This document shows, one piece after another, positions 51,428 through 52,073 of a stretch of DNA of 64,000 bases (positions within the stretch are counted from its first letter, which is position 1; each line of letters starts with the position of its first letter). The notes below the pieces were generated by a model. The model worked only from the letters and a program-made list of their open reading frames with translations. It ran no database searches and was not told the DNA's origin. This DNA is from a virus. Taxonomy: Duplodnaviria > Heunggongvirae > Uroviricota > Caudoviricetes. The translations under genes and the position numbers were made by a program. The stretch is taken from positions 22,261-86,260 of the IMG/VR virus record IMGVR_UViG_3300035660_000003. One strand, given 5' to 3'.

Positions 51428-51448
51428 TATTTAAACTTTGCGTTTATT
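51428..51448 (-). promoter_or_regulatory. consensus BRE/TATA promoter
   Basis: gtatttaaactttgcgtttat. Confidence 0.55.
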
Positions 51449-52073
51449 TTAGTTCACGGTTTAATTCTGCGACTTGTTGTCCGCCAGTCTTGCCTTTCTT
51501 TTCTTTGATTCGTTTAGGCAAATTAACCTTAGCCAGCAATGTAGTCAGAGACAATCCTTCAGTCTTAATTTGCCATTTTAGTGGTAATTTGCACATTATT
51601 CTATCCAATACTTTCTTTGCTATGCCATATGCAACTGCGTCGTCATTCATTGTGATTTCTATGAGCGGACGACCTTTCTTTATCTGTGCCAACCGCATCT
51701 CTGCCGCTCCGAAACTTTGTTTACCCATGCCACTACTGATACGTTCTGCCTTTGCAACACCGACTAAGCCATGACTTCGTGCCTGATGATGTGGATATGA
51801 AGAAATCTTTAAACGATAGTTTTCTTCTCCAATAACCCTCATTTCCCTATGTATGGTTACTCGAACTGAAACCAATGCTTTAGCTGAAACTTGACCGTCC
51901 CTTTCGGCGACCAATGAAATTTTGGCTGGAAAATCCAACTTAGATGAATTTCCAAAGACACTGTGCTTGAAACCTTCAGGGACATCTTGCATTCTCTTAA
52001 TGTATTCCTTGCGAGTGTAAGGCAATTGAATGTGTCTATAATTTCTCGCCAAACGCTTTCCCATATTTATCAA
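51444..52073 (-). CDS. ribosomal protein uL16 (L10e) homolog
   Basis: RLARNYR, PYTRKEYI, YPHH, GMGKQSFG, CKLPLKWQI align to conserved L10e/RPL10 blocks. Confidence 0.65.
   Translation of the reverse strand: MINMGKRLARNYRHIQLPYTRKEYIKRMQDVPEGFKHSVFGNSSKLDFPAKISLVAERDGQVSAKALVSVRVTIHREMRVIGEENYRLKISSYPHHQARSHGLVGVAKAERISSGMGKQSFGAAEMRLAQIKKGRPLIEITMNDDAVAYGIAKKVLDRIMCKLPLKWQIKTEGLSLTTLLAKVNLPKRIKEKKGKTGGQQVAELNRELK

Follow-up and report, generated by a model that had tools for sequence, protein, structure and literature searches.

A gene for an archaeal/eukaryotic-type ribosomal protein uL16 (L10e) is encoded on the minus strand of a 64-kb stretch of viral DNA (hereafter the window), which covers bases 22261-86260 of a 112,412-bp IMG/VR record from sediment metagenomes. 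The record is classified as complete (100%) with direct terminal repeats, and an exact repeat of 127 bp is present at its ends. Its head and terminase module, of the HK97 type, comprises a large terminase (Pfam Terminase_6N; phrog_2 at 2.9e-19) and a major head protein (phrog_544 at 1.6e-9); virion and minor-tail proteins are also encoded. PolB, an MCM helicase, an archaeal LonB, an ATP-dependent DNA ligase, an RNA ligase, and KaiC/RadA-like ATPases are among the replication and other genes. The setting of the uL16 gene is viral because the record combines terminal repeats with genes for terminase, major head, and virion or tail proteins; by gene content, it represents a tailed virus (Caudoviricetes) with archaeal-type replication genes and not a chromosome. 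No tRNA genes were detected in the window or the whole record (ARAGORN), and no known RNA families, including rRNA, in the 64-kb window (Rfam). Judged by its sequence, the virus is very distant from catalogued viruses; the terminase has no tblastn match among 50,697 GenBank phage records.

The uL16 gene is the last member of a predicted five-gene unit on the minus strand, preceded by open reading frames (ORFs) of 69 amino acids (ORF69), 538 amino acids (Top6A-like), 94 amino acids (ORF94), and 64 amino acids (ORF64) (Table 1). As stated in the original prediction, which was made from the sequence alone, its neighbours are a Top6A/Spo11-Toprim-like ORF and small cysteine-rich ORFs, not a ribosomal-protein operon.

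Table 1. Features of the uL16 locus and of other regions of the viral genome (window coordinates unless stated otherwise; PTC, peptidyl-transferase centre; BRE, B recognition element)
Feature	Position	Strand	Remarks
uL16 (L10e-type) coding sequence	51444..52064	-	206 aa plus stop, ATG start at 52064; profile matches, PDB matches, structure model
GAGGA, Shine-Dalgarno-like	52074..52078	-	9 nt upstream of the uL16 ATG; putative, read from the sequence
Codons for residues 96-120, P-site loop and base (R96 ... AKAER108 ... GM113 ... G119)	51705..51779	-	
Family-specific C-terminal extension, residues 170-206 (EG.S...LPKR.KEKK..GG.QVAEL.REL)	51447..51557	-	
64-aa ORF	52070..52264	-	directly upstream of uL16; weak DUF4177 match, below cut-off
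94-aa ORF, very basic	52261..52545	-	upstream of uL16 in close relatives too
Top6A/Spo11-Toprim-like ORF, 538 aa	52592..54208	-	syntenic with uL16 in L002
69-aa Cys-containing ORF	54201..54410	-	first gene of predicted transcription unit
AAAGTTTAAATA BRE/TATA-like motif	54449..54460	-	putative promoter of the five-gene unit ending with uL16
AAAGTTTAAATA motif	51428..51439	-	just past the uL16 stop; marks start of following unit
Further AAAGTTTAAATA sites	35476-35487, 38008-38019, 38547-38558, 40982-40993, 6764-6775, among others		
RNA-like element, 87 nt	51318-51404	-	between uL16 stop and next gene
DruA-like ORFs (Druantia defence protein family)	49392-50060 and 47333-48154	-	79 and 56 bits
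Papain-like protease	39483-40247		
SPFH protein	31554-32441		
Sugar-modification cluster	61177-63533 and genome 86316-92816 (L007:316-6816)		

Sequence comparison and structure prediction confirm that the protein is a uL16 of the archaeal/eukaryotic type. In a profile search, residues 19-169 match Pfam PF00252 (Ribosomal_L16) with an E value of 8.6e-20 and 71.5 bits (cut-off 27.9), and the protein scores above the cut-off of the NCBIfam equivalog NF003239 (126 versus 91 bits). A sequence search of the PDB recovered 78 distinct uL16 sequences at E ≤ 1e-3, the best of which, from Pyrobaculum, is ~30% identical over residues 6-172. The blocks that had been quoted in favour of this identity (RLARNYR, PYTRKEYI, YPHH, AERISSGMGKQSFG, and CKLPLKWQI) are all present in the translation, and the alignment with cellular uL16 (L10e/RPL10; PF00252, TIGR00279) is collinear over the full length and includes the invariant residues R68, G112-M113, and G119. 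An AlphaFold2 model based on a 105-sequence alignment has a mean predicted local distance difference test score (pLDDT) of 86 and a predicted template modelling score (pTM) of 0.79. The top 50 Foldseek matches of the model in the PDB are all uL16 chains of archaeal or eukaryotic ribosomes, with E values down to 4.5e-15; the template modelling (TM) score to the target is 0.79-0.84 for archaeal uL16 chains (~0.8 for those of Methanosarcina, Pyrobaculum, Pyrococcus, Thermococcus, and Haloarcula). The pLDDT is low at the P-site loop, as expected for a loop that is ordered only on the ribosome, and a terminal helix is predicted with lower confidence in the C-terminal extension.

The ORF and its identity stand as originally proposed, but its start does not. 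An in-frame TTG at 52073 is given as an alternative start in the list of open reading frames, which would extend the ORF to 51444..52073 on the minus strand. The ATG at 52064 is the likelier start codon because it yields the canonical N-terminus MGKR, coincides with the start of a public gene call (P0001), and is preceded by GAGGA at a distance of 9 nt. The stop codon of the 64-aa ORF (52070-52072) is located 5 nt upstream of this ATG.

All invariant and near-invariant columns of the 105-sequence alignment are conserved in the viral protein (R18, P29, G38, R68, P91, R96, A104, A106, R108, G112, M113, G119, and K159). Inspection of the loop residues that contact the PTC, which the original prediction had recommended, showed that R96 and R108 are kept and that the flanking glycine and aspartate are replaced by lysine and glutamate. 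Neither arginine varies within the viral family, and the distance of 12 residues between them equals that between R98 and R110 of yeast, with which they are equated by alignment and spacing; also the length of the loop is preserved. In yeast, both loop arginines are essential: R110 keeps the PTC base A2971 flipped out as the P-site loop completes the active site, and R98, at the base of the loop, is the site of a leukaemia-associated mutation. The two replacements (G105K and D107E), which convert the cellular AGADR into AKAER, are fixed in the viral family (100%), which is further characterized by R60S, E65V, E97S, and two small insertions. Compared with cellular uL16, the virus-encoded protein is only ~25-38% identical, differs in the loop, and carries the insertions and a C-terminal extension of ~37 residues. 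The extension, first noticed as a basic tail of ~30 residues, is real (residues ~170-206) and conserved across the family (hereafter tail-bearing); neither cellular uL16 nor the tail-less viral copies described below have it. It is not the tail of eukaryotic RPL10, and the long tails of other uL16 sequences are unrelated low-complexity stretches.

The closest relatives of the protein form a branch of their own. A HMMER scan of 1.84 billion representatives yielded six proteins at E < 1e-30, all of the tail-bearing viral type, followed after a gap by P0039 (38% identity) and a long list of proteins with ~35% identity or less; the nearest cellular proteins are ~35% identical. In a word-indexed search of 5.8 billion proteins, 32 clusters with 42-85% identity were recovered, nearly all of them ~205 amino acids long and none with an NCBI source or organism label. 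Scans of IMG/VR found no uL16 in other IMG/VR contigs. In a phylogenetic tree of 80 sequences (IQ-TREE, LG+C20+F+G4; bootstrap not fully settled, representatives without taxon labels), the 18 sampled tail-bearing proteins and P0039 form a clade with 99/96 support, which together with P0041, P0056, P0059, and P0100 constitutes a clade of ~23 sampled sequences (99/90). All six members whose genomic context was inspected are located in virus-like contigs. Cellular contexts, such as elongation factor EF-2 with exosome genes or AspRS with eL38, appear only further out in the tree. By its phylogenetic position, the uL16 of the window thus belongs to a branch so far found only in virus-like DNA. Since the nearest cellular proteins are only ~35% identical, capture from a cell must, on this sequence evidence, have happened once, but anciently.

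Several distinct groups of archaeal viruses carry uL16 beyond the family represented by the window, because tail-less genes encoding 166-171 amino acids are present in three other virus-like contigs (L009:1275-1781, L045:5087-5587, and L049:10001-10516). The first of these encodes Lon_C, GT4, and HNH proteins and many small ORFs; the second encodes an RNA ligase and DUF6899, as does L002. Virus-like contexts are found also in L002, L005, and L010. One of the tail-less homologs, P0046, which adjoins a Phage_portal gene on a 62-kb contig, joins next in the tree with weaker support (64/83).

The gene is also a stable component of the virus lineage. In a second sediment study, 91% of the sampled words are present and the region is tiled at ≥99% identity, with strain variants. 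Because the unitigs of this data set (X2) break at 51455-51594 and alone do not bridge uL16 and the downstream gene, synteny was assessed with independent assemblies. The order Top6A-like ORF, 94-aa ORF, uL16, and DruA-like ORF is common to the window and the independent assemblies L002 and L003. Two partial loci also contain uL16, namely L048 (part of a 96-kb contig) and L012, whose copy is 87% identical and located on a contig binned into an archaeal metagenome-assembled genome (MAG); in L005, a more distant member is found among unannotatable small ORFs. Pairwise ratios of nonsynonymous to synonymous substitution rates (dN/dS) are 0.13 for the comparison with L002 and 0.045 for that with L012, and synonymous sites are close to saturation. 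In the comparison of base composition and codon usage with neighbouring genes that had been suggested originally, uL16 falls within the spread of the virus genes (GC content 0.40 versus 0.357 ± 0.032, z +1.45; codon-usage z -0.9). The conserved synteny, low dN/dS, virus-like composition, family-specific extension, and ~32 relatives argue against a recent capture and support the view that the virus lineage has kept uL16 under strong purifying selection.

Taken together, the gene is viral, intact, and conserved, and its product combines the sequence and modelled fold of uL16 with both loop arginines known to be essential in yeast. We consider it somewhat better than an even bet (probability ~0.55) that it represents a virus-encoded, selection-maintained uL16 paralogue that enters the 50S subunits of the host in infected cells. 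Of the two alternatives offered in the original prediction, a ribosomal protein of the element's own agrees best with synteny, selection, composition, and clade membership, and capture of a host gene is retained only as one ancient event. Neither of the two findings named beforehand as refuting the prediction, a chromosomal contig with a ribosomal operon or a poor alignment over the full length, was obtained. The gene would be transcribed as the last member of the five-gene unit from the BRE/TATA-like promoter, and its product would dock in the cleft between helices 38 and 89 (H38/H89) of nascent or uL16-free host 50S subunits, thereby replacing host uL16. In eukaryotes, uL16 is among the last proteins to be loaded, and its loop, which completes the PTC, is proofread before the subunit is licensed. 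Because uL16 joins late and its loop completes the PTC, a viral copy would be well placed to enter ribosomes made after infection. Either the maturation of 50S subunits would be sustained when the host supply fails, or virus-modified ribosomes would result. The fixed change from AGADR to AKAER beside an essential arginine would alter the contact with the P-site and PTC, and the basic-then-helical extension would add a new surface feature or docking surface. Manipulation of translation is what we infer from these sequence features; a precedent is provided by phage ribosomal proteins, which can enter host ribosomes as stated in PMC8651126 with reference to PMC6375957.

Several observations weigh against this interpretation. 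The protein fails the cut-off of TIGR00279, the strict archaeal/eukaryotic equivalog (92.4 versus 223.55 bits); the cut-off is strict, as cellular comparators also remain below it (130-183 bits), yet by these scores the viral protein is clearly more divergent than the latter. With NF003239, the tail-bearing family scores low (106-126 bits) when compared with cellular uL16 (165-203 bits), and tail-less viral copies range from 94 to 172 bits. Among 38 columns that are at least 70% conserved in cellular-like uL16 sequences, 26 are kept in the window protein and 12 differ (including E65V, R60S, E97S, G105K, and D107E), no recognised counterpart was found for the C-terminal extension, and the data sets listed as containing the region include no RNA data and only two DNA sediment runs.

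Such divergence would fit also a changed, non-ribosomal role. The uL16 fold may have been exapted to act off the ribosome, for example by binding a viral or host RNA, or as a decoy that titrates a loop-reading host factor (quality control of the SBDS/aIF6 type, a uL16 chaperone, or a defence sensor). The altered columns, two of them in the P-site loop, the lowered scores against the family models, and the novel extension are in line with this explanation, as are the reading of the same loop by SBDS and Nmd3 in eukaryotes and the presence of a conserved, structured RNA-like element directly downstream of the gene. However, the universally invariant columns and both arginines are kept across 42-85% divergence, and the entire globular fold is preserved (TM 0.8 to archaeal uL16). 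For a decoy, much of the rRNA-binding body would be dispensable. In addition, tail-less viral copies, with 158-172 bits, come close to the scores of cellular uL16, and the RNA-like element is absent next to uL16 in L005. Exaptation is the main rival explanation, less probable than incorporation into ribosomes and with a minor, although not negligible, chance of being correct.

It is very improbable that the gene is a recently captured host gene and a passenger without a role for the virus. Viruses do acquire host genes, and the MAG with the 87% identical copy (G001) is a GTDB species representative ("uncultured archaeon binchicken_co387_541"; ~1.3 Mb). The copy, however, is carried by a virus-like contig; the bin has at least four of these (C26, C132, C242, and C9; L012, L014, and L050-L053), which are 66-89% identical to the window between 44 and 64 kb. 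G001 has its own, distinct uL16 on C42, and the viral copy is the second PF00252 match in the bin. In the phylogeny that the original prediction had recommended, the uL16 of G001 and those of 28 small-genome relatives form a clade separate from the viral clade (99/90). A sister relationship is disfavoured; forcing the two clades together decreases the log-likelihood by 43, which is marginally rejected by the approximately unbiased test (p-AU 0.042). Also the low identity to the nearest cellular proteins, the virus-only clade, the conserved synteny, the low dN/dS, and the virus-like composition contradict a passenger status. Still less credible is a cellular or chimeric contig with an ordinary chromosomal uL16: in archaea, uL16 is often encoded away from the main ribosomal operons (L043 and L046 are cellular examples), so that the absence of an operon alone is no proof, but this reading is contradicted by the terminal repeats and viral hallmark genes, the same gene order in independent assemblies from other samples, the tiling of the region in the second sediment study, and the Rfam and ARAGORN searches, which detected neither rRNA nor tRNA genes in the window and no tRNA genes in the whole record.

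The co-binning with G001 is the only physical link to a host and may be either a clue to host identity or plain contamination. The kin of G001 have genomes of 0.3-1.3 Mb, and the Atlas points to a Woesearchaeota-like uL16. Matches of 30-37 nt in G001 were rejected as spacers, as they lie outside CRISPR arrays. Atlas neighbours of the viral uL16 comprise Uroviricota (its own cluster), Promethearchaeota, and Nanobdellota; look-alikes of the MCM helicase are spread over Methanobacteriota, Nitrososphaerota, Thermoproteota, Nanobdellota, and viruses and are uninformative on the host. Irrespective of the host, viral uL16 genes binned into archaeal MAGs, including a GTDB species representative, can be mistaken for a duplicate of a single-copy marker.

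A broader version of the uL16-paralogue interpretation is possible, although clearly more speculative. The clade of ~23 sequences, extended by the portal-linked, tail-less form that joins it with weak support, might represent a virus-restricted uL16 lineage that was inherited by, and diversified among, several groups of archaeal tailed viruses. Such viruses would systematically rebuild the P-site and PTC of the host with the AKAER loop and tag 50S subunits with a new C-terminal appendage, giving rise to virus-specialised ribosomes at the last step of assembly.

Ribosomal proteins are a classic dividing line between cells and viruses. Virus-encoded ribosomal proteins are established in phages (PMC6375957). 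Phage-encoded bS21, bL12, bS1, and others (PMC6375957, PMC9723584, PMC13157829) resemble the present case in that a ribosomal protein is provided by the virus, presumably for incorporation into host ribosomes, but they are mostly peripheral, exchangeable bacterial proteins. In archaeal tailed viruses, another large-subunit protein, eL21 (L21e), is encoded by hafunaviruses; it binds near 5S rRNA, is restricted to archaea and eukaryotes, and occurs in four haloarchaeal isolates of one family (PMC8651126), whereas uL16 is a universal protein beside the PTC and, in the present case, has a deep clade encountered only in virus-like contigs. A Bathyarchaeia virus ("Kunpengvirus") with MCM and PolB genes from sediment-type metagenomes likewise carries a single ribosomal-protein gene, in this case a bacterial-type bL19 in one genome; according to its description in 2023, only L21e had previously been seen in archaeal viruses (PMC10541130). 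For archaeal proviruses, S6e, L15, L15e, and L30 have been reported. The eL40 of the giant virus FloV-SA2 (PMC11499249) is a different protein of a eukaryotic virus, but may offer a functional parallel at the final, PTC-completing step: the loading of proteins in eukaryotes ends with eL40 and uL16, and eL40 forms the binding site of uL16.

No earlier report of uL16/L10e in any virus was found in the literature. The protein (as L16, uL16, or L10e) is absent from key surveys of virus-encoded ribosomal proteins, no homologue was detected in the 50,697 GenBank phage records, and no uL16-like fold among the viral proteins of BFVD. The present case stands out for a protein located at the catalytic core, for a deep virus-only clade, and for an appendage specific to the family as well as the intein of a relative (see below). 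Known viral ribosomal proteins are mostly peripheral; by contrast, uL16 is universal, essential, loaded last, and reaches into the PTC. Little is known about host take-over in archaea, and a viral uL16 lineage whose P-site loop carries fixed changes would give direct access to the question of how a virus can reprogramme the catalytic core of the ribosome or its final maturation checkpoint. The protein is small, and an expression test is feasible in model archaea or yeast.

The assignment of uL16 to a five-gene unit (54460 to 51439) is based on the AAAGTTTAAATA motifs that flank it. This motif occurs at 12 sites in the window (2.6 expected), most of which are at gene starts and on the coding strand, and it is likely the promoter consensus used by this virus. 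Within the unit, the 538-aa ORF has a Top6A/Spo11 Toprim domain as its sole match (36 bits); it scores ~31 bits with Top6A equivalogs, far under the cut-off, and no Top6B-like partner was found among the ORFs scanned. The 94-aa ORF has no family match; its six known clusters all belong to this virus group, and a functional link with uL16 is possible. Elsewhere in the genome, one of the DruA-like ORFs is also syntenic in L002 and L003, and the sugar-modification cluster comprises two epimerase/dehydratases, a DegT aminotransferase, a hexapeptide acyltransferase, a PIG-L deacetylase, and several glycosyltransferases.

One member of the viral uL16 family (P0035, 543 amino acids; L010:6362-7993, also L011:2863-4494) is interrupted after GMRL by an insert of 335 residues. 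The insert starts with a cysteine, contains a LAGLIDADG domain, and ends with His-Asn followed by serine (GMRL|C...THN|SFGK); its removal restores GMRL-SFGK within the P-site-loop motif. By these sequence features, it is a textbook LAGLIDADG intein at the most conserved motif of the protein. Conserved sites are the usual locations of inteins, and the position provides indirect support that the GMRL/SFGK motif matters to the virus. An intein survey lists none in ribosomal proteins and few in core translation components, and a published case of a ribosomal protein with an intein was not found. The same contig carries a second LAGLIDADG/intein-like ORF of 602 amino acids (L010:12642-14450).

The RNA-like element downstream of uL16 is located ~23 nt behind a BRE/TATA-like AAAGTTTAAATA motif. 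Its 7-bp closing stem is followed by ACCA, next by three internal hairpins, and finally by a Shine-Dalgarno sequence and the ATG of a cysteine-rich ORF. In L002 (10816-10897), the closing stem is changed from GCGGATA/TATCCGC to GCGGACG/CGTCCGC, which involves two compensatory pairs, and hairpin 3 is one pair shorter on both sides; in L048 (639-750), hairpin 3 is duplicated. Three variants are known, and the z-scores of the fold are only -1.6 to -2.0. The element is neither a tRNA nor a known RNA, as it has no ARAGORN match at relaxed thresholds and no Rfam match, and one of its two pattern matches in metagenomes (L047) is a chance match. A second recurrent sequence, AARGTNAAGGTGATNYTNAT, is present at 28 sites on the minus strand, compared with 1.2 expected (e.g., 50509-50528, 50061-50080, and 48798-48817). 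It represents an extended Shine-Dalgarno sequence (GGTGAT) right before overlapping start codons, and its translation corresponds to the recurrent C-terminus ...KVKVILI of the upstream small ORFs.
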